Origin: a virus
Taxonomy: Duplodnaviria > Heunggongvirae > Uroviricota > Caudoviricetes
Length of the DNA: 21,792 nt
Reading direction: 5' to 3' (one strand)
IMG/VR virus record: IMGVR_UViG_2718217715_000004
Made by a program: the position numbers and the translations under genes
The notes under the pieces: generated by a model
The model's input: only the letters and a program-made list of their open reading frames with translations
Databases searched by the model: none
Told to the model about the DNA's origin: nothing
Part shown: in pieces, positions 9,464 to 19,742 of the stretch
How the letters are laid out: the number at the start of each line of letters is the position of its first letter
Position numbering within the stretch: the stretch's first letter is position 1

Positions 9464-9990
9464 ATTGTGGGGCGACTGGCCACTCAACATCCGCTGCTAC
9501 TGTTGTATCAACACGATTCAACAATACCCGATATGTCTTCCATGCAGCCAGTAACGATGCCTCTTCCTCCGTCGCAATATCCAAATCTACGGCATCCTGA
9601 AGTGGCGCAATATGCTCACTGGCTACCTGCATCAGGCTGTTTTTTGTTTCTTCTGCCTCCCGTACCCGAAACAGTTTTTCTGCTTCTGCATCTTTCGCCC
9701 AGGATGTGCCGTTCCACTTCTGACACTCTCCATCCGGCGACAACCAGGTAACATTTTCCGGTAACGGACCGAGTTCAGAAATAAATAACGCGTCGCCGGA
9801 AGCCACGTCATAAACCGTTTTACCCCGATGATCTTCAACGAGATGCCACGATGCCTCATTACTGTTGAAAACAGCCACGAAGCCAGCCGGAATATCTGGC
9901 GGTGCAATATCGGTACTGTTTGCTGGCAGACCTGTATGAGGCGGAATGTATGCGTCACCTTCACCAATAAATTCATTAGTTCCGGCCAGC
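9462..9990 (-). pseudogene. tfa: Tail fibre assembly protein (lambdoid Tfa/TfaQ-like), 5' end removed by the IS insertion
   Basis: Minus-strand frame is open from the IS boundary: ...[61 protein letters not shown]...[12 protein letters not shown]...EWPVAPQ, matching remembered Tfa proteins; about 17 N-terminal codons are missing (ORF track shows only 9462-9878). Confidence 0.8.
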
Positions 9991-10044
9991 TGAACCGCCC
10001 CGGGAATCCTGGAGACTAAACTCCCTGAGAAAGAGGTAAACAGG

Positions 10045-10371
10045 ATGACTAAAAATACTCGTTTTTCCCCCGAAGTCCGTCAGCGGGCGATTCGTATGGT
10101 TCTGGAAAGTCAGGATGAATATGACTCACAGTGGGCGGCAATTTGTTCCATTGCCCCAAAGATTGGCTGTACGCCGGAGACTCTGCGTGTCTGGGTTCGC
10201 CAGCATGAGCGGGATACCGGGGGCGGTGATGGTGGGCTCACCAGCGCTGAACGTCAGCGTCTGAAAGAGCTGGAACGTGAAAATCGTGAACTGCGCCGCA
10301 GTAACGATATCCTTCGCCAGGCTTCCGCTTATTTTGCGAAGGCGGAGTTCGACCGCCTCTGGAAAAAATGA
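10045..10371 (+). CDS. IS3-family transposase OrfA
   Basis: 108 aa [27 protein letters not shown]...; 3 substitutions relative to copy A. Confidence 0.9.
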
Positions 10372-11258
10372 TGCCACTGCTGGATAAGCTGCGTGAGCAG
10401 TACGGGGTCGGACCGGTATGCAGCGAACTGCATATTGCCCCGTCAACGTATTACCATTGTCAGCAACAGCGACATCATCCGGATAAACGCAGTGCCCGTG
10501 CGCAGCACGACGACTGGCTGAAGAGAGAGATACAGCGCGTATACGATGAAAATCATCAGGTGTACGGTGTGCGTAAAGTCTGGCGTCAGTTGTTACGGGA
10601 AGGAATCAGGGTGGCCAGATGTACAGTGGCACGTCTCATGGCGGTTATGGGACTTGCCGGTGTTCTCCGGGGTAAAAAGGTCCGTACGACCATCAGCCGG
10701 AAAGCCGTTGCCGCAGGCGACCGCGTAAACCGTCAGTTCGTGGCAGAACGACCTGACCAGCTGTGGGTGGCTGATTTTACTTACGTCAGCACATGGCAGG
10801 GCTTCGTCTATGTGGCGTTTATCATTGATGTGTTTGCCGGATACATCGTGGGGTGGCGGGTCTCATCGTCTATGGAAACGACATTCGTGCTGGATGCGCT
10901 GGAGCAGGCGTTGTGGGCCCGTCGTCCGTCTGGCACCATCCATCACAGCGATAAAGGCTCTCAGTATGTGTCACTGGCCTATACGGAGCGACTAAAAGAA
11001 GCCGGATTACTGGCATCAACAGGGAGTACAGGCGACTCGTATGACAACGCGATGGCTGAGAGCATCAATGGTCTTTACAAAGCGGAGGTAATACACCGTA
11101 AGAGCTGGAAAAACCGTGCAGAAGTGGAACTGGCCACACTAACGTGGGTGGACTGGTATAACAATCGACGATTGCTGGGAAGGCTGGGCCATACTCCTCC
11201 GGCAGAAGCAGAAAAAGCTTATTATGCTTCCATCGGAAACGATGATCTGGCAGCCTGA
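10368..11258 (+). CDS. IS3-family transposase OrfB (DDE), -1 frame relative to orfA
   Basis: 296 aa; overlaps orfA at the GGAAAAAATGATG window. Confidence 0.9.
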
Positions 11259-11340: not shown

Positions 11341-11655
11341 TTATTCTGGGAATAAGGTCTGAATATTCTTTTTTATTTTATAAAAATTGCATTCAACTCC
11401 GCTAGGCTGATTAGCCTGGTATGTTTCCTTGATGCTAACGGTATTGAAGGGGAGGTTGTCCTCTGGCCATTCGGCCATCCAGTAGGCAAATGCTGGGTTG
11501 CGCTTTATGAGTGCTAGCCCAGCCAGAAAGGCCGCGCGTTGCGCGCGGCTGCGTTCGGAGGCTGGCAGGCTATCGAGGTAATTGCACGCCTCCTGTTCAC
11601 TCTTGACGGCGGCGGGCTTCAGATAGAAACTTATCCGTCTGGTTGGTGTCGTCAT
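11341..11655 (-). CDS. parR: ParR/StbB-like centromere-binding adaptor of a type II partition system
   Basis: 104 aa; RRISFYLKPAAVKSEQEACNYLDSLPASERSRAQRAAFLAGLALIKRNP aligns closely with remembered plasmid R1 StbB/ParR (RRTIAFKLNPDVNQTDKIVCDTLDSIPQGERSRLNRAALTAGLALYRQNP); lies directly downstream of parM. Confidence 0.75.
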   Translation of the reverse strand: MTTPTRRISFYLKPAAVKSEQEACNYLDSLPASERSRAQRAAFLAGLALIKRNPAFAYWMAEWPEDNLPFNTVSIKETYQANQPSGVECNFYKIKKNIQTLFPE

Positions 11656-11659
11656 TGGT

Positions 11660-12619
11660 TTACTCCTTGTTCATTGCGTACAACCCATTAACCAGAGCAA
11701 ACTGTGGCACCCCGTCCGCGATGAAAGTCGCATTAACTCCGCAGGCTTCGCGGATAGCGGTTGCCACAATCTCCGCCCCGCCACCGACAACCATCACCCG
11801 CCCGTAACCCGAAAAAACCGCCAGCGCGCGGATCACGCGTTGTTTCAGTGTTTCTTCCTTTTCACGAATAACCGCCATCAGGCTGGCGTAATGCGCGTCA
11901 TTGTGGATGTGCTGGCGCAGCCAGGCTTCATCATGGCGATGTTCGATAATGGTATTGGCGATGTGGTGACTGGTGCGCATACCGTTAGTGGCCATCACCG
12001 ACAGTACGGCATCGGCCATCAGAGAAACGCCTACGTGTGGATCGCAAAACACCTGGCTGATACCTGCCAGTTGCCCCTGAACCTTTGCCACATCCAGCGT
12101 GGTTCCGCCCAAATCCACAATCAGCAGGGATTCAAACGGACTCATGTCAGCCAGTGCCTTAAAGCCAGCAGGAATGGATTCAGGCATAACCCGTACGTTA
12201 CGGATAGTGAATGCTTCGCCGTTCTGGTACTCCACCGGGCGCATGACGTTCGCTTTTTTGCGGTTGATGTTGGCCATGTCCGGCTGTGCGTTTGTATCGA
12301 AATACTCGCTCAGTGGCAGGGTGACAACCACATCCACTTCCTGTGGTGTGATGCCTGATTTGACCAGCGCGTGATGAATGGCAATTACATTCACATCGCT
12401 GTACTGGTATTGCGTGTCGGTCGTCTGGACAAAGCGATCGCTGACCGGATCAAAACCATAGCGCACGCCATCAAGCATGTAGTTCGCGGGCTGCGTGCCA
12501 CCGAATGGCGCAGACCATTCCGACTTGAAGCTGTTCGGGCTGATGGCGTTGCGGCGTTCGCCGTTCTCAGTCCATGCCAGCTTGATGTTGGTGGAGCCGT
12601 CGTCGATACAAATTTTCAT
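11660..12619 (-). CDS. parM: ParM/StbA-like actin-fold partition ATPase
   Basis: 319 aa; IDDGSTNIKL.W, ISPNSFK.EW, QYSDVNV.A.HHAL, FTI..V.VMPESIPAG, LLIVDLGGTTLD, VVGGGAE, LVNGLY conserved with remembered R1 ParM; SD AAGGAAAA. Confidence 0.85.
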   Translation of the reverse strand: MKICIDDGSTNIKLAWTENGERRNAISPNSFKSEWSAPFGGTQPANYMLDGVRYGFDPVSDRFVQTTDTQYQYSDVNVIAIHHALVKSGITPQEVDVVVTLPLSEYFDTNAQPDMANINRKKANVMRPVEYQNGEAFTIRNVRVMPESIPAGFKALADMSPFESLLIVDLGGTTLDVAKVQGQLAGISQVFCDPHVGVSLMADAVLSVMATNGMRTSHHIANTIIEHRHDEAWLRQHIHNDAHYASLMAVIREKEETLKQRVIRALAVFSGYGRVMVVGGGAEIVATAIREACGVNATFIADGVPQFALVNGLYAMNKE

Positions 12620-12637: not shown

Positions 12638-12762
12638 GATTAATTAATCGGTTACAGGATTTTTAAATCCCGCTTTTGCCTGTTTTGTGCGCGCTTCATA
12701 TATCGCGGCGCGTTTTTTGCTCATTTACGGGATTTGTGAGTCCCGTTTCTGTCTGTTTTTTG
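12638..12762. repeat. Candidate parC-like region: 12-bp perfect palindrome GATTAATTAATC plus two ~33-bp imperfect direct repeats upstream of parM
   Basis: Palindrome at 12638-12649; repeats GGATTTTTAAATCCCGCTTTTGCCTGTTTTGTG (12657-12689) and GGGATTTGTGAGTCCCGTTTCTGTCTGTTTTTTG (12729-12762); the second repeat lies inside the 3' end of gene A, so function is speculative. Confidence 0.3.
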
Positions 12763-15518
12763 TTTCCACTGGTCAGGCCACCCCGCAGCAGGTCTGCTTT
12801 GCGGCTGGCGCGTTCAGTGGTTTCACTGATTCTCTGTGCGTGCTCTGCGTCGCGGATGGCGCGCAGCATGTCAGAAAGCACGGTAACGGGTGTTTTCATG
12901 GTGTTCTGGTCCTGCTGAAGTGTGGATGCCAGGCGTGCGGCGGCTTCAGGGTCTGATGCCCCCAGCTGTGCCAGATAGCTGGCGACCGGGTTATGGCGGA
13001 TCTCCGTGCTGCTTACGCCATGATTACGGCTCAGGCGCTGCCAGAGCTGCGTGATTCGGCTGTCCGGGCGGGTATCCGGTTTGCGTACAATTTCAAATCC
13101 CTGCGGTGCAATGATGCTGCCGTCAACGTACAGACTGCCGCCCCGTAACAGGTGCTGCATCTGTTGTTCACCGATATGCAGGCCGAGAGATTCAGCAGAC
13201 TCCCGCCATTCTTTAGCGAGTAATTCGTGGTTATCAGGCAAAGGCCGCTGCTGTTTGCGGCTCTGTGTCCAGCTCTGCATTTCATCACTGCTGTTTTTTG
13301 CCTGTTTGTCACGAAGCGAACGCATCAGCGCCCGGCGTTCGTGCCGTTTCAGTGAGCGCATCCATTCGTTCACGTCAACGCCGTCAGGAAGCTGCGGCCA
13401 CGGTGCTGGCCGTTCTTCCGGCTGTTCTGTCCCGTTGTTGTCCGTTTCCTGTACACGGGGACAGTTATTGCCACGAGTCCAAGGGGCGGCAGGGCCGCCC
13501 TGAAGGTCAAAACCATTTTCGCGGGCGCTGTCTTCTACTCCCGGTTTACGTCTTACCAGCTTCCAGTTATCCGGGTGCGTGCACACACGGGAGGATTCCC
13601 CGATGAGTGGTGACCAGATCCCGTAAATCTGTACGCTCTGTTCGCCGTAATCGTTCAGCTCATCTGCGAGGTCGTAGGCGGTGCGAATCAGGTAGTCCTT
13701 GCGTGGAACAAGTACGCCTCCCTGTTTCTCAATGTAGGTGGTAAAACATCCGGCATCAGCGGCAGCAAGAACCGCATCCATTGCGTCATCCTTCAGCCGT
13801 TGCGGGCCTTCCGGGTTGCGTGCCATCTGGCTGGCAAGGCGACGCAGTTCACGCCACACCTGACGGGAGGGGATGCCAAAGAACTGGAACTGGCGGACCC
13901 GGTGAAGGCGCGCCCAGCCAATGGCGCGTTCCACGCTCTCGGTCATTGATTTTCCGGTTTCGTGGTCAACGCGTGGTTTGCCTGTTTTCGGGTCGATGCC
14001 ATCCACGGCGCGGCTGTCCAGGTTTTTTCCGATGTAGGTGGCGATGTAGCTGGTTGGCGTGCCTTTTGAGCCGTCGACATACTCCGCCTTAAAGCGCGGA
14101 GTAATATCATCGCCCAGCTCGTGACGATCTTCCTGAATGGCAATATCGCGGGTGTGGGACACAATGGTGTCGATTTCTTCCGGATGAGCAAAGACCATCA
14201 TATGCCAGTGCACGGTGCCGTCATGGTGAGGCTCCACCGTGCGGATGCCATACCAGCGCAGGCCGTCGCGGTTCAGTTTCTTGCGGACCGCCGCAAAAAA
14301 CGTGTTAACCAGGTAATCGCTGGAGTCGCGCATGGTGGCCCCGTTCCATTTGGGATTCGGATGACCGTTCTCTGTTGTAGCGTGGTATTTTGACGGGCAG
14401 GTGACAGTCAGAAACACCGCTTTGTCGCCACGGGCTTCGGCCAGAAGTTCCAGCCCCTTCATGGTGGCCATCATTTCTGCCTTACGGTGAACCGGGTTAC
14501 TTACTCCCGCGTAATACACTGTCTCGAGATCAATCGTGAACCCGTCTTCGTTTTCCAGCATGAAACTTTTCAGGAAATCGCGTGTTTTCTCGCGCTGTGC
14601 GCGAAACTCGCTTAACGCGTCCTGGCTCAGATAGGGCGATGTTTTTCTGGAAACCAGACAGGCGGCGCGGAGTTGTTCTTCTCTCCACTCGCAACGTAAC
14701 AGCCACAGTTTGCGTTTCCACCATTCCGCACAGGTCAGGCGAAGGATTGCGCCCGGCAGCAGCTCCGTGTCCGGTTCGTTCCTCCGGTCTTTGTCTGTTG
14801 TCAGTGCGTCATAATGTGGAGGCATGGCGTGCAGGTGTAACGCCATGCGGGCCAGCATCTGATACGCCTTCAGCGTTACATCCATGGTCAGTTCGCCATC
14901 GGTCGCGCCAAAGCCATCGCAGAGTTTTTCGAAGGTGCTGCTGAACATCGCCGCCGTCATGGTGGCCAGCGTCTGTATCTGGTGTTTGTTGAGCTGCGGC
15001 AGGTAAAGCAAATCGTCCTGGCGTTCGCGTCCGGCAAGGGAGCGATAACCCTGTGTCAGCCAGCGGTGATCGGTGCGCTCCAGACGTTCGAATATTTTGC
15101 GCAGGTTTCCGCGCGCGTAGCGTTCAGCCTGCCAGCTCTTTTTGCCTTTCTGACGATCGGCTTCCTGTTTTTTGCGCAGGAAGGAGAGGTGGCGAATAAG
15201 CGGATCGCGCAGATAGGACGGCAGCAGGCGCAGCGAGGCCATGGCTTCATCCACCGCACCGCGTGCCTGTTTTCTGGCGTCTCCTGCCAGTGTGATGGTT
15301 TTGTCCTGTTTTTCCTGTGCGTCCAGGCTTTTATTAATCAGGTTGCCCAGCGGCGTTGCGGAGAACGCCGCATCAGCCATTTCCTGGCGGCGCTCGTTCT
15401 CTACCCGGTAGGCATCCAGCCAGGAGGAAAGCGCGGATTCAGGAGCGGGGATCCCCGTTCCTTCACGCCCCACTGCGTGGCGCGGTTGTTGCCAGTCCCT
15501 GATGTACTCTGCCGTCAT
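12696..15518 (-). CDS. A: P2-type replication initiation endonuclease gpA (rolling-circle, HUH class)
   Basis: 940 aa; HUH-type motif TVHWHMMVFAH and paired tyrosines SYIATYIGK, typical of the phage GPA family; longer than P2 A as remembered. Confidence 0.75.
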   Translation of the reverse strand: MTAEYIRDWQQPRHAVGREGTGIPAPESALSSWLDAYRVENERRQEMADAAFSATPLGNLINKSLDAQEKQDKTITLAGDARKQARGAVDEAMASLRLLPSYLRDPLIRHLSFLRKKQEADRQKGKKSWQAERYARGNLRKIFERLERTDHRWLTQGYRSLAGRERQDDLLYLPQLNKHQIQTLATMTAAMFSSTFEKLCDGFGATDGELTMDVTLKAYQMLARMALHLHAMPPHYDALTTDKDRRNEPDTELLPGAILRLTCAEWWKRKLWLLRCEWREEQLRAACLVSRKTSPYLSQDALSEFRAQREKTRDFLKSFMLENEDGFTIDLETVYYAGVSNPVHRKAEMMATMKGLELLAEARGDKAVFLTVTCPSKYHATTENGHPNPKWNGATMRDSSDYLVNTFFAAVRKKLNRDGLRWYGIRTVEPHHDGTVHWHMMVFAHPEEIDTIVSHTRDIAIQEDRHELGDDITPRFKAEYVDGSKGTPTSYIATYIGKNLDSRAVDGIDPKTGKPRVDHETGKSMTESVERAIGWARLHRVRQFQFFGIPSRQVWRELRRLASQMARNPEGPQRLKDDAMDAVLAAADAGCFTTYIEKQGGVLVPRKDYLIRTAYDLADELNDYGEQSVQIYGIWSPLIGESSRVCTHPDNWKLVRRKPGVEDSARENGFDLQGGPAAPWTRGNNCPRVQETDNNGTEQPEERPAPWPQLPDGVDVNEWMRSLKRHERRALMRSLRDKQAKNSSDEMQSWTQSRKQQRPLPDNHELLAKEWRESAESLGLHIGEQQMQHLLRGGSLYVDGSIIAPQGFEIVRKPDTRPDSRITQLWQRLSRNHGVSSTEIRHNPVASYLAQLGASDPEAAARLASTLQQDQNTMKTPVTVLSDMLRAIRDAEHAQRISETTERASRKADLLRGGLTSGNKKQTETGLTNPVNEQKTRRDI

Positions 15519-15524
15519 AGTGAT

Positions 15525-15890
15525 TTACTTCGTCATGCCATTCAGGGTGTCGCGGCAGGCTGTAGCCAGCCGCTGAATTTCCAGCACGGTGTCTTCTGTG
15601 TCGGCATGGCGATGTGTGATGCGGATGCTGTCGGCAATCACATCGACGATTGCAGAGGATGGGCGCTGGTAAATGCCAATAACGGACGGGGTGCCACCTT
15701 CAATGCGGTAAAGCCTGTAATTTCCCTCGTGGCTGTCAATCATGTAGCGACCATCAATAACAATCTTTCCGTCAGCGAGCTGCGGTACAGGCAGGGATTT
15801 CAGGTACATGTCATAACGATCACGCACGCGAGCGGCAAGATCACGTTCTGTGTTGAGCAGGTATTCAAGAAAGTCGTTGGCGAGAATCAT
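15525..15890 (-). CDS. Hypothetical early-operon protein (121 aa) immediately upstream of A
   Basis: ORF with SD AGAGGA; no recognisable motifs. Confidence 0.5.
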   Translation of the reverse strand: MILANDFLEYLLNTERDLAARVRDRYDMYLKSLPVPQLADGKIVIDGRYMIDSHEGNYRLYRIEGGTPSVIGIYQRPSSAIVDVIADSIRITHRHADTEDTVLEIQRLATACRDTLNGMTK

Positions 15891-15962
15891 TGCGGCAATC
15901 CTCTTGTTACAGATGTGCGAAGGCCTCCCGCCGCAAGGTGCAGGAAAGGCCCGGAACAGGAA

Positions 15963-16193
15963 TTAATGGAGTTTGTTTTGCTGCTGGATGAGCTGTTGAA
16001 ACTCGTGCAGATCATCCGCCAGATAGCTGAAAACAGAGGCGGAATAAATGTTTGATAGTGCGTGGCTGCGCTCATGCAGCATATTGATGTGCATGATTTG
16101 CGCGACGCGTGATGCGCGGGAAAGTCTGCGGTTGATTTCAGTCTGGATGTGACGACGCTCCGCGATAGCGCGGTGCTGTTTGCGGTCTGCCAT
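15963..16193 (-). CDS. Hypothetical small basic protein (76 aa)
   Basis: ORF with SD AGAGG; preceded by a structured intergenic region. Confidence 0.45.
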   Translation of the reverse strand: MADRKQHRAIAERRHIQTEINRRLSRASRVAQIMHINMLHERSHALSNIYSASVFSYLADDLHEFQQLIQQQNKLH

Positions 16194-16372
16194 GGTGTGG
16201 CCTCTTTGCTCGGTGATAGAAATAACTCACCATCCAGAGTTGAGAATCTCGGGGTGGCGAGACGTACAGGGTTCTCAACACCGGAGAGCAAAGAATCCGG
16301 CCCGACCGAAGTCGGCCCCGTACGCCCCGCCATAATTCTGACGCGAAAAAGACGTGGCAATACAGTACGCAC

Positions 16373-16393
16373 AAAAAAACCGCTAGCGCGGTT
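16373..16393 (-). terminator. Rho-independent terminator on the minus strand
   Basis: Read on the minus strand: stem AACCGC / GCGGTT, loop GCTA, followed by T-run (GCGGTTTTTTT). Confidence 0.5.
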
Positions 16394-16464
16394 ATGCGCT
16401 TTGCTCTGTATCGGGTTGAGAATCCCGGCACCCGTTTTATGAGGTGCAGCGGAAATGTAACCTG

Positions 16465-16494
16465 ACCGATTGCGGCATGGCAAGCGGTTTTTTT
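16465..16494 (+). terminator. Possible plus-strand intrinsic terminator (convergent with the minus-strand one)
   Basis: Imperfect stem ACCGATTGC / GCAAGCGGT followed by T7 on the plus strand. Confidence 0.3.
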
Positions 16495-16515
16495 GTGTGT
16501 GCATGTTCTGGTTTC

Positions 16516-16815
16516 TTACTGGTTCAGAAAAAAATCAAAAACGTTATCGATGCGTTGCAGCAGCTCTTGCTGCATTGCTTCCGGCGTTTCCGGTTCGCCA
16601 GGTGCCCCCAGCGTTGCGCAGAAATCAGCGATTTCATGATGGAGCGTGAGGCGAATGGCAGGAGCCGTGGTTCTGGCGTGCTCCAGCTGATCCAGCAGTG
16701 CCAGCACAGCAGACGGCGAGAGCATTGCGCGAAATGCCAGTAATTTTTGAGGCGTTGCCATTCGTTGCAGGGCAAATGCCAGTTCGCGTAGCTTCTGGTG
16801 GTTGATGGTGCTCAT
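16516..16815 (-). CDS. Hypothetical protein (99 aa)
   Basis: Start overlaps the stop of the upstream gene by 4 nt (ATGA), indicating translational coupling. Confidence 0.5.
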   Translation of the reverse strand: MSTINHQKLRELAFALQRMATPQKLLAFRAMLSPSAVLALLDQLEHARTTAPAIRLTLHHEIADFCATLGAPGEPETPEAMQQELLQRIDNVFDFFLNQ

Positions 16816-17078
16816 GCTCTGGCTTCCTTCAGTAGCTGGTTAAACATGTGAGTAAGTGGATTGCTACACCCGAACGGCATCGGGTTTACGTGGTAAGAAG
16901 CCTGGCCTCCTGTTTTGCGAGCGCGACCACCTGTGCTGCGGTTTGTTCTGATGACTAAGCCGCCGCGCCAAAGTCGGCGTAACTCAGCATTAATGGCTGT
17001 GGTTGGGGTATTCAGTGCTGCGGCGATCTCTCCGCCGCTACACCCCGGATGAGTAGCGATGTAGTCCAGAATGGTCAT
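16812..17078 (-). CDS. Small winged-helix-type DNA-binding protein (88 aa)
   Basis: GGEIAAALNTPTTAINAELRRLWRGGLVIRT pattern typical of winged HTH; 4-nt overlaps with both neighbours. Confidence 0.5.
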   Translation of the reverse strand: MTILDYIATHPGCSGGEIAAALNTPTTAINAELRRLWRGGLVIRTNRSTGGRARKTGGQASYHVNPMPFGCSNPLTHMFNQLLKEARA

Positions 17079-19055: not shown

Positions 19056-19262
19056 TCAGGAAGATTTGTTTTGTTCTTTCTGGGTTAGCTCTAGGCCGCG
19101 AAGGGAGATCATGCGCGCCATGTTAGAGGATGAGCGTTGTTCTTTAGCTGCCATTTCATCAATGACGGCTCGCTCCTCGAGGGACAGCCGAAGTGCCAGT
19201 CTTGGACCTGTGGCGGTGTTACGCGGAATGCGTGATCTGGTATCGTGAAGAACTTGTTTCAT
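19056..19262 (-). CDS. Ribbon-helix-helix (CopG/Arc-like) DNA-binding protein
   Basis: 68 aa; RLALRLSLEERAVIDEMAAKEQRSSSNMARMISLRG fits the RHH beta-strand/helix-turn-helix pattern; weak SD, so start or reality is uncertain. Confidence 0.4.
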   Translation of the reverse strand: MKQVLHDTRSRIPRNTATGPRLALRLSLEERAVIDEMAAKEQRSSSNMARMISLRGLELTQKEQNKSS

Positions 19263-19304
19263 AGTGGTATATTGTGATCATCTAATAGCTCGTGAAATCA
19301 TTTT

Positions 19305-19322
19305 GGTATCAAAAAAGATACC
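19305..19322. promoter_or_regulatory. Candidate operator: perfect inverted repeat GGTATC-N6-GATACC in the divergent-promoter region
   Basis: Read directly; an extra GGTAT half-site at 19266-19270; lies between the RHH/Cox early genes and the XRE repressor gene. Confidence 0.3.
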
Positions 19323-19337
19323 TGTCAAGGTTTTTGT

Positions 19338-19742
19338 ATGAAAAATGATATTGGTCGGCGGTTGCGTGAGGAAAGGGAAAGATTGGGACTTAGTCAAGTT
19401 GCCATGAGCGACATTGGTGGAGTCAAAAAGCTAACTCAGCTTAGATATGAGAAAGGAGATAGCTTTCCTGATGCTGCGTATTTGGCAGCGCTGTCTCGTT
19501 TTGGCCTTGATGTTCAGTATGTTGTGTTGGGAATTCACTCACCTGAAACTTATAACGATGATGAGCAGGAATTGATTACTCGCTTTCGAGCAGCTTCGTT
19601 AGATGTGAAAAACGCGGTGATTGGGGCTTTAAAAGGTGCGATCAGTGAAAAGGAAACTCAGCCATCAGGACGTGAGTTAAATATTTCTGGTGGTAATAAC
19701 CGTATCGCTGGTCGTGACTATAACGAAACTAAGGGTAGGTGA
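19338..19742 (+). CDS. XRE-family HTH protein, probable immunity repressor (P2 C / 186 CI analogue)
   Basis: 134 aa; RLREERERLGLSQVAMSDIGGVKKLTQLRYEKGDSFPDAAYLAAL is a classic Cro/C1-type HTH; divergent from the early operon and on the same strand as int. Confidence 0.7.
   Translation: MKNDIGRRLREERERLGLSQVAMSDIGGVKKLTQLRYEKGDSFPDAAYLAALSRFGLDVQYVVLGIHSPETYNDDEQELITRFRAASLDVKNAVIGALKGAISEKETQPSGRELNISGGNNRIAGRDYNETKGR

Follow-up and report, generated by a model that had tools for sequence, protein, structure and literature searches.

We analyzed a 322-bp gap between two early genes (positions 16194 to 16515) in a viral stretch of 21,792 nucleotides (nt), IMG/VR record IMGVR_UViG_2718217715_000004, which carries a P2-family prophage and which we refer to as the window. 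With good confidence, we interpret this gap as an RNA immunity cassette of the type known from P4 (seqA-CI-seqC) and P1 (a1b1-c4-a2b2), placed in the early operon of a P88-like prophage. The interpretation is carried by matches to two RNA families, by the folds of both RNAs, by their complementarity to each other and to target sites downstream, and by the co-variation of six recognition segments among related cassettes. Most likely, the cassette prevents translation of the epsilon-like gene that follows it and of the replication endonuclease gene A, and through polarity their transcription as well. Cassettes of this kind (P4/P1-type IsrK-C4 antisense immunity) are already known and their families are in Rfam; the one reported here is a further member.

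Two structured RNAs on the minus strand

An earlier reading of the same letters (the original prediction) had suggested that the gap specifies a small antisense or regulatory RNA, or else a cluster of binding sites for a regulator or for the replication initiator. The RNA half of that suggestion is borne out, as two minus-strand RNAs match the Rfam families isrK and C4 above their gathering scores (50 for isrK, RF01394; 45 for C4, RF01695; and, for c4-a1b1, RF03163, 46.7). The elements concerned are the following:

16454 to 16483, minus strand: sigma-70-like promoter-like site from a promoter scan, with -35 TTGCCA (16483-16478), an 18-nt spacer, and -10 TACATT (16459-16454)
16373 to 16447, minus strand: IsrK/P4-seqA-like small RNA (RF01394, 63.0 bits, full length)
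16250 to 16337, minus strand: C4/P4-CI-type antisense RNA (RF01695, 78.5 bits, full length 1-87, E = 3.8e-14)

The IsrK-like RNA would start at the G at 16447, 7 nt past the -10 element, and the P88-like, P4, N15, Yersinia, and lambdoid homologues have a -35/-10 pair with the same spacing to the 5' end of IsrK. It consists of hairpin 1 (16447-16428), hairpin 2 (16427-16412), and an intrinsic terminator; the latter is the minus-strand terminator that had been noticed before, and a terminator scan calls its stem at 16393-16378 with a U-run to 16373. The minimum free energy (MFE) fold agrees with the Rfam model in its two hairpins and terminator, and across 15 homologues 93.3% of cells are paired, with compensatory changes in 5 of the 7 pairs of helix 1. 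The isrK promoter and Rho-independent terminator, both predicted to be active, stand directly upstream of the complementary RNA, with C4 following 35 nt downstream. The c4-a1b1 model reaches 15.9 bits over 16460-16408, below its gathering score (P4 itself scores 44.1), and the isrK model describes this element better.

A second promoter-like site at 16360-16332 on the minus strand (TTGCCA, 17 nt, AATTAT), which would start transcription inside C4, is probably due to chance, because its -35 element is not conserved in the lambdoid, N15, and P4 cassettes (spacer of 24 to 25 or 107 nt) and is weakened in one relative (L053). The AAUUAU at its -10 position is the conserved 5' flank of C4.

C4 is built from a 17-bp closing stem (16332-16316 with 16271-16255) around two hairpins, a UUCG hairpin (16315-16302) and the hairpin that carries the a' loop (16301-16280). 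The GC hairpin that the original prediction had placed near 16297-16320 corresponds to helix 2 of this RNA together with the first part of helix 3. Folded alone, C4 adopts the structure of the family model as its MFE fold (-47.6 kcal/mol, z = -4.9). The long closing stem carries compensatory changes, and across 19 homologues the paired cells amount to 99.8% and compensatory changes affect 15 of 27 pairs, a covariation that none of 500 shuffles matched (slid controls, 33 to 46%). The flank A5, U6, G7, G8 and the residues C84 and C85 after the stem are invariant in the same 19 homologues, a pattern that would fit a tRNA-like RNase P substrate.

Six recognition segments that vary in concert

Both RNAs, when folded alone, leave their recognition segments unpaired. 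C4 exposes two such segments, a' (CUUUGCUCU) and b', and each has one complementary site upstream, in the IsrK-like RNA, and another downstream:

16415 to 16423, minus strand: b1 site AUUCUCAAC, located in the hairpin 2 loop of the IsrK-like RNA, complementary to C4 b'
16399 to 16407, minus strand: a1 site AGAGCAAAG, in the IsrK-like RNA, complementary to the C4 a' loop
16285 to 16296, minus strand: a' loop AUUCUUUGCUCU of C4, in a hairpin loop, pairing with a1 (9 bp) and a2 (10 bp)
16271 to 16279, minus strand: b' segment of C4, GUUGAGAA(C), a single-stranded stretch that joins helix 3 to the closing stem and pairs with b1 and b2 (8 bp each)
16239 to 16247, minus strand: b2 target site AUUCUCAAC, 3 nt past the C4 match (16250)
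16201 to 16211, minus strand: a2 target site GAGCAAAGAGG, containing the Shine-Dalgarno sequence AAGAGG (16206-16201) of the 76-amino-acid (aa) gene downstream

The loop of IsrK hairpin 2 reads AUUCUCAA, and a1 is largely single-stranded in the fold and fully so in the centroid structure. On the downstream side, a' is complementary to GAGCAAAGAG at 16211-16202, within a2.

These segments account for the repeat that first drew attention to the gap. The motif GTTGAGAAY occurs three times, as had been claimed, at 16239-16247 (plus), 16271-16279 (minus), and 16415-16423 (plus), against an expectation of 0.23; none of 100 shuffles reaches three, and all copies in the window fall within the gap. The first copy is b2, the inverted one is b', and the third is b1. 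A second triple motif had been overlooked: GAGCAAAG lies at 16211-16204 and 16406-16399 (both minus), with its complement in the C4 loop at 16293-16286. One copy of the first motif had been taken to overlap the -35 element of the 76-aa gene; the promoter scan reports no promoter-like site there, and this copy is an RNA target site in place of a -35 element.

To compare cassettes, we searched with the 76-aa protein and recovered 83 related loci from IMG/VR and the genomes of Escherichia albertii and Salmonella (protein identity, 87 to 100%), and a scan of genome contigs with this protein gave 3 loci. The comparison set comprised 84 sequences, 47 of them distinct, and formal pairing counts were made over 16 specificity types. 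The 410 nt upstream of the 76-aa homologues are nearly identical, with the differences concentrated in the six recognition segments. Across the 84 sequences, these segments vary in concert: there are 5 b-types (GUUGAGAA, CUGCGAA, GUGGAAA, GUUCCAA, and GGUUGCAA) and about 10 a-types, each matched at all three places, and a- and b-types reassort independently (one relative, L016, represents the type CUUGUGUAG / CUGCGAA).

Pairing between IsrK and C4 is kept in 96.3% of cells, compared with 68.3% in shuffled and 25 to 55% in slid controls, and its covariation score of 0.705 (0.141 shuffled) was equaled by none of 500 shuffles. Between C4 and the downstream target, pairing is kept in 94.4% of cells, with a covariation of 0.652 (0.152 shuffled); shuffled pairing was 68 to 69% in both tests. 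Among 14 cassettes, including those of P4, N15, Yersinia, and lambdoid phages, the cognate duplex is the best one in 14 of 14 cases for the IsrK target and in 13 of 14 for the downstream target, and duplex energies are about -22 to -23 kcal/mol for cognate versus -11 to -13 kcal/mol for non-cognate pairs. The recognition helices also contain G-U pairs at several positions (for example, 13 U-G at columns 164/258 and 4 at columns 165/257), which fit pairing between RNAs and do not fit identity of DNA sites. The covariance analysis of homologous regions, which the original prediction had put forward as a check, supports both RNA folds and the pairing among six sites.

We also considered whether C4 of this element might act against other element families, and set the idea aside. 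When the b plus a combination of the window was sought in IMG/VR, only P88-like cassettes at least 98% identical appeared among the matches listed, which is limited evidence.

Genes downstream of the cassette

The a2 site lies on the ribosome-binding site of the first open reading frame (ORF) after the cassette, the presumed anti-repressor gene itself, and the genes are arranged as follows:

15963 to 16193, minus strand: 76-aa derepression protein gene, AUG at 16193, homologue of P4 epsilon
12696 to 15890, minus strand: downstream genes of the same transcription unit, a 121-aa ORF (15890-15525) and the replication endonuclease gene A (15518-12696)

The first of these genes has its Shine-Dalgarno sequence 7 nt before the AUG. 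Its product falls in the Pfam family Derepression, PF25738 (31.9 bits, above the cut-off of 27; E = 1.1e-07), is 32% identical to P4 epsilon over 50 aa (BLASTP, E = 6e-09), and is named "derepression protein" in RefSeq. Gene A matches Pfam Phage_GPA (E = 2.4e-131). The 121-aa protein falls in PHROG 3237, a family without an assigned function, and a comparison of its gene with P4 orf151 found no similarity. The 121-aa gene and gene A are presumably subject to polarity and would come under the control of the cassette.

A model for the cassette and points against it

In the model that we favor, the promoter at 16483-16454 would start transcription near 16447, and most transcripts would end at the intrinsic terminator, yielding an IsrK-like RNA of about 75 nt. 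Transcripts that read through, together with those from the upstream early promoter, would carry C4, which would be excised, probably by RNase P and 3' trimming. The unpaired segments a' and b' of the released RNA would pair with a2 and b2 and cover the Shine-Dalgarno sequence of the 76-aa gene, so that the anti-repressor would remain untranslated, while the 121-aa gene and gene A would be held down through Rho-dependent polarity or premature termination. The same two segments could also pair with a1 and b1, and the IsrK-like RNA may therefore be either a second leader target, like P4 seqA, or a competitor that titrates C4 and relieves repression, like the IsrK of Gifsy-1.

Several points weigh against this model. 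The terminator between IsrK and C4 looks efficient (a 6-bp GC-rich stem followed by U7), and the supply of C4 would therefore depend on read-through. The sequence is equally compatible with net repression by the IsrK-like RNA, as in the P4 seqA model, and with net activation, as in the Gifsy-1 model. The RNA layer may be secondary to the protein repressor (19338-19742) and cox-like switch of the prophage (19056-19742 in all), and the cassette may be idle in this strain because the prophage is disrupted by insertion sequences (IS). Finally, RefSeq annotates no feature and no noncoding RNA in the gap. A literature search for expression at this locus found no transcript maps and only an Rfam listing for strain EDL933 (PMC5331693). 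These Rfam-based lists give C4 once and isrK twice for EDL933 (PMC5331693), and the present instance has therefore probably been catalogued already.

Alternative explanations

The closest alternative, which we regard as possible if rather unlikely, is that the main mode of control is riboswitching in cis of the Gifsy-1 type: the C4 segment of the read-through transcript would pair with a2 and b2 in cis and hide the ribosome-binding site, and the short IsrK-like RNA, acting in trans, would open this structure and induce the anti-repressor and the prophage, C4 not being primarily a diffusible repressor. A component in cis is plausible, since the MFE fold of the full 263-nt transcript pairs a' with a2 and b' with b2, disrupts the C4 closing stem, and hides the Shine-Dalgarno sequence (z = -5.2). 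In Gifsy-1, moreover, IsrK in trans raises anrP translation at least 100-fold (PMC4825925). However, the fold of C4 itself is strongly kept by covariation, as expected if the excised RNA functions, as it does in P1, P4, and N15. The Gifsy-1 model also needs a translated small ORF, orf45; the window has none, its epsilon-like gene starting at a2, whereas a small ORF is found at the corresponding position in P4 and in the lambdoid homologues examined (Gifsy-1 itself not among them). Control by an excised C4 and control in cis use identical pairings and are not mutually exclusive.

The remaining explanations dispense with a regulatory RNA. The other half of the original suggestion takes the repeats for binding sites on the DNA, which would serve a phage regulator (MarR-like or Cox-like) as operators or the A protein as iterons. 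Three copies do lie within 185 bp, two direct and one inverted, and their concerted change could in principle follow an altered protein specificity. We nevertheless hold this to be very improbable: the copies fall exactly in the loops and other unpaired segments of two covariation-supported RNAs, there are two independent motif triplets, which reassort, one copy sits on the Shine-Dalgarno sequence, and exchanges between G-U and Watson-Crick pairs at several positions break DNA identity but keep RNA pairing. The P2/186 origin lies inside gene A, which counts against iterons, and the copies are linked to one another by a complementarity that admits G-U pairs. The homologous systems are established as RNA-RNA (PMC3632133, PMC4825925). 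Nor does the gap appear to encode a protein, be it an "Ash family protein" or the old P4 cI ORF, the explanation to which we give the least credence. A 205-aa ORF (16504-15887) has a weak match to Pfam Phage_ASH (E = 0.0027), and in one P88-like GenBank record the annotation of this stretch reads "similar to ash family protein." Yet this match, at 18.6 bits, falls short of the Pfam cut-off of 26, the ORF and the epsilon-like gene overlap in different frames, and the other ORFs over the gap have no Pfam match. The original statement that no credible ORF crosses the gap stands: the 205-aa and 97-aa ORFs are unsupported, insertions or deletions of 1 and 2 nt in relatives break any frame, and the variation is compensatory at the RNA level. 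In P4, the "cI ORF" stretch that matches Phage_ASH (E = 4.3e-16) covers the CI RNA gene, and the Pfam family, PF10554, therefore looks like a translated RNA cassette. The P4 ORF occupies 8168-8584 (minus) of our P4 sequence (L003), and the Phage_ASH ORF of the window (minus) spans the whole IsrK-C4 cassette. PF10554 has served as an epsilon marker in a survey of P4 satellites (PMC8628076); the true epsilon and the 76-aa protein belong to PF25738 instead.

It is likewise very doubtful that the gap is only a transcriptional insulator, with convergent terminators between two early units. The minus-strand terminator is a good one, and the other strand offers this candidate, formerly listed as a possible plus-strand terminator:

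16466 to 16495, plus strand: hairpin CCGATTGC-GGCATG-GCAAGCGG followed by T7, with one mismatch

The plus-strand half of the claim does not survive, however: although the hairpin (16466-16487) and its T7 exist, the hairpin is no more stable than shuffled sequences (z = 0.22), the terminator scan is silent there, and no plus-strand promoter or gene feeds it. An insulator would also leave the two Rfam matches and the covariation of six sites unexplained. The hairpin overlaps the -35 element of the IsrK-like promoter and lies where the conserved cassette ends on its upstream side: relatives whose upstream genes differ become homologous from about 16497 on. It is conserved within the P88-like phages, and the cassettes of P4, N15, and the lambdoid phages lack it. 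As a candidate operator at the IsrK promoter, this inverted repeat was rejected, its half-site CCGMTTGC occurring nowhere else in the window and nothing similar being seen in the repressor/cox switch region.

Setting of the cassette

The window is 100% identical to Escherichia coli O157:H7 chromosomes and represents an IS-disrupted P2-family prophage flanked by pgsA/tRNA-Gly-Cys-Leu and a phage integrase. The carrier belongs to the P2 family and is P88-like (Xuanwuvirus-like); it has gene A and virion genes of the P2 type and is not a satellite. The tail sheath, tube, and tape-measure genes that are present are of the P2 type, as are the capsid genes of the intact relative. The prophage is defective, since it lacks the capsid, portal, and terminase genes that the intact relative in strain PV15-279 possesses. 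The early operon, on the minus strand, runs from the cox-like region through several small genes, an 88-aa MarR-type gene, and a 99-aa gene to the gap, followed by the 76-aa gene, the 121-aa gene, and the 940-aa replication endonuclease A. A 1-kb query around the gap (window positions 15900-16900) has matches in about 1,300 of 5,426 complete E. coli genomes.

Other features of the window and of the sample were noted in passing. Two IS3-family (IS1203/IS629-like) copies lie at 1775-2988 (minus) and 10045-11258 (plus), each with an ALIL frameshift pseudoknot. ParM-like and partition/stability genes (11341-12619, minus) directly follow gene A, which hints at a plasmid-like maintenance option, as in P4. 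Rfam IS009 (191 bits; 9499-9697, minus) matches within a coding sequence labeled tail fibre assembly protein (9462-10007), and a serine O-acetyltransferase gene (8846-9418, plus) amid the tail genes is apparent prophage cargo. One locus of the sample (L086; NZ_JBQPOM010000071.1, labeled Vagococcus sp.) carries an enterobacterial P88-like cassette with an epsilon-like gene (87% identity); on a contig that bears the name of a Gram-positive genus, this likely reflects contamination or mis-binning.

Significance

The analysis turns an unannotated gap of some 320 bp into a defined regulatory module with testable pairings, and suggests that the RNA immunity design of P4 and P1 operates, or at least is maintained, inside P2-family phages of the helper type. 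We found no paper on the cassette in P88-like phages, on such a placement, or on the specificity polymorphism. Two aspects seem worth following. That a helper-type phage has the cassette ahead of an epsilon homologue and gene A bears on the origin of the P4 immunity-epsilon module, and the rich, reassorting polymorphism of matched natural a/b variants offers a ready collection of orthogonal RNA-RNA pairs. There is also an annotation problem, in that Pfam "Ash," used as a marker of P4 epsilon, appears to be a translated RNA cassette.

A more far-reaching version of our interpretation is speculative, and we think it improbable as a whole. In this version, the RNA cassette, rather than the protein repressor alone, would gate induction and replication in P88-like phages; the IsrK-like RNA would act as an anti-antisense signal for induction, releasing the epsilon-type anti-repressor and gene A; the P4 immunity-epsilon module would share a recent origin with such helper-type phages or have been captured from them; and the 5 by about 10 a/b specificities would form an RNA immunity-typing system among near-identical prophages.

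Comparison with known systems

The tandem of isrK and C4 is present in every relative tested, namely, N15, Yersinia, lambdoid/Stx phages, and all P88-like loci tested. In the immunity region of P4, directly upstream of epsilon, the two families match in the same order with 60.8 bits (isrK) and 74.9 bits (C4). The P_LE leader of P4 contains seqA and its CI RNA contains seqB, and seqC comes next. The likeness to P4 extends to the promoter, the IsrK/seqA hairpins with their terminator, the C4/CI RNA, the two targets, of which the second lies on the Shine-Dalgarno sequence, the derepression gene, and the replication gene. Recognition also uses two segments in both, those of P4 being UUCUCAC/GUGAGAA and CCUGUGAA/UUCACAGG. 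After the CI RNA, P4 has the targets GUGAGAAC and UUCACAGGAGG (the latter on the Shine-Dalgarno sequence), followed by epsilon, whose product derepresses the helper, then ORF151, ORF106, and the replication gene alpha. The element in the window differs from P4 in lacking the alpha primase, sid, psu, and delta and in having gene A (Phage_GPA) and P2-type tail genes; it does not belong with the P4-like satellites and is a P2-family prophage that bears a P4-type cassette. The spacer between IsrK and C4 is 107 nt in P4 and 35 nt in the window, and the cassette of the window lies midway in a long early operon, which includes a protein repressor/cox switch as well. P4 has a small ORF (MATTLTPSHPEF...) after a2 and the Shine-Dalgarno sequence and only then epsilon, whereas the epsilon-like gene of the window starts at a2. 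A small conserved ORF, MAT(T/I/V)(L/P).., stands right after a2 and the Shine-Dalgarno sequence in P4 (L003, 8364 onward) and in four lambdoid cassettes (L087, L088, L089, and L092), its place being taken by the epsilon-like gene in P88-like phages.

In the immI region of P1 and P7, the anti-repressor ant is under the control of the c4 antisense RNA, whose target sites are a1/b1 upstream and a2/b2 where ribosomes bind to icd. The c4 RNA of P1 is the founding member of the Rfam family C4, and the heteroimmunity of P1 and P7 arises from changes in a' and b'. As is established for P1, two exposed segments have targets on both sides within one transcript, the downstream one lies on a ribosome-binding site, and an anti-repressor is controlled, and the window is alike in these respects, the control being predicted. 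It differs in that its anti-repressor is of the epsilon type and not Ant, that it has no icd-like ORF, and that its upstream targets belong to a separate small RNA that has a promoter and a terminator of its own (an isrK match), on which the c4-a1b1 model scores as low as reported above.

IsrK has been equated with P4 seqA and C4 with the P4 CI RNA, and similar cassettes have been described in lambdoid prophages (PMC3632133). For Gifsy-1, which has the order isrK-orf45(STnc1160)-anrP-isrJ, experiments have demonstrated that transcription reads through IsrK, that a complementary RNA is processed, and that the anti-repressor AnrP is controlled (PMC4825925). The window resembles this locus in having an IsrK with a promoter and a leaky terminator, a stable processed complementary RNA downstream, and a controlled anti-repressor gene (PMC4825925), the read-through, processing, and control being predicted for the window. 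Gifsy-1 is a lambdoid prophage, however; its control runs through translation of orf45 coupled to that of anrP, there is no orf45 equivalent in the window, and the published effect of IsrK is activation. Hfq binding and activation in trans of the downstream anti-repressor by IsrK are on record for Gifsy-1 only (PMC4825925).

N15 likewise has isrK and C4 in tandem (62.4 and 78.8 bits) and controls an anti-repressor by a small processed RNA. It is a linear plasmid prophage with a different a segment and different downstream genes (gp32-gp30). Its C4 carries the same b' as the window, GUUGAGAA, and its b sites read (A/C)UUCUCAAC (L091, 1401-1680): the downstream one, AUUCUCAAC, is that of the window, and the upstream one, CUCUCAAC, differs by one base. 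Because N15 and the window have b' in common, partial cross-recognition between unrelated prophages is conceivable.

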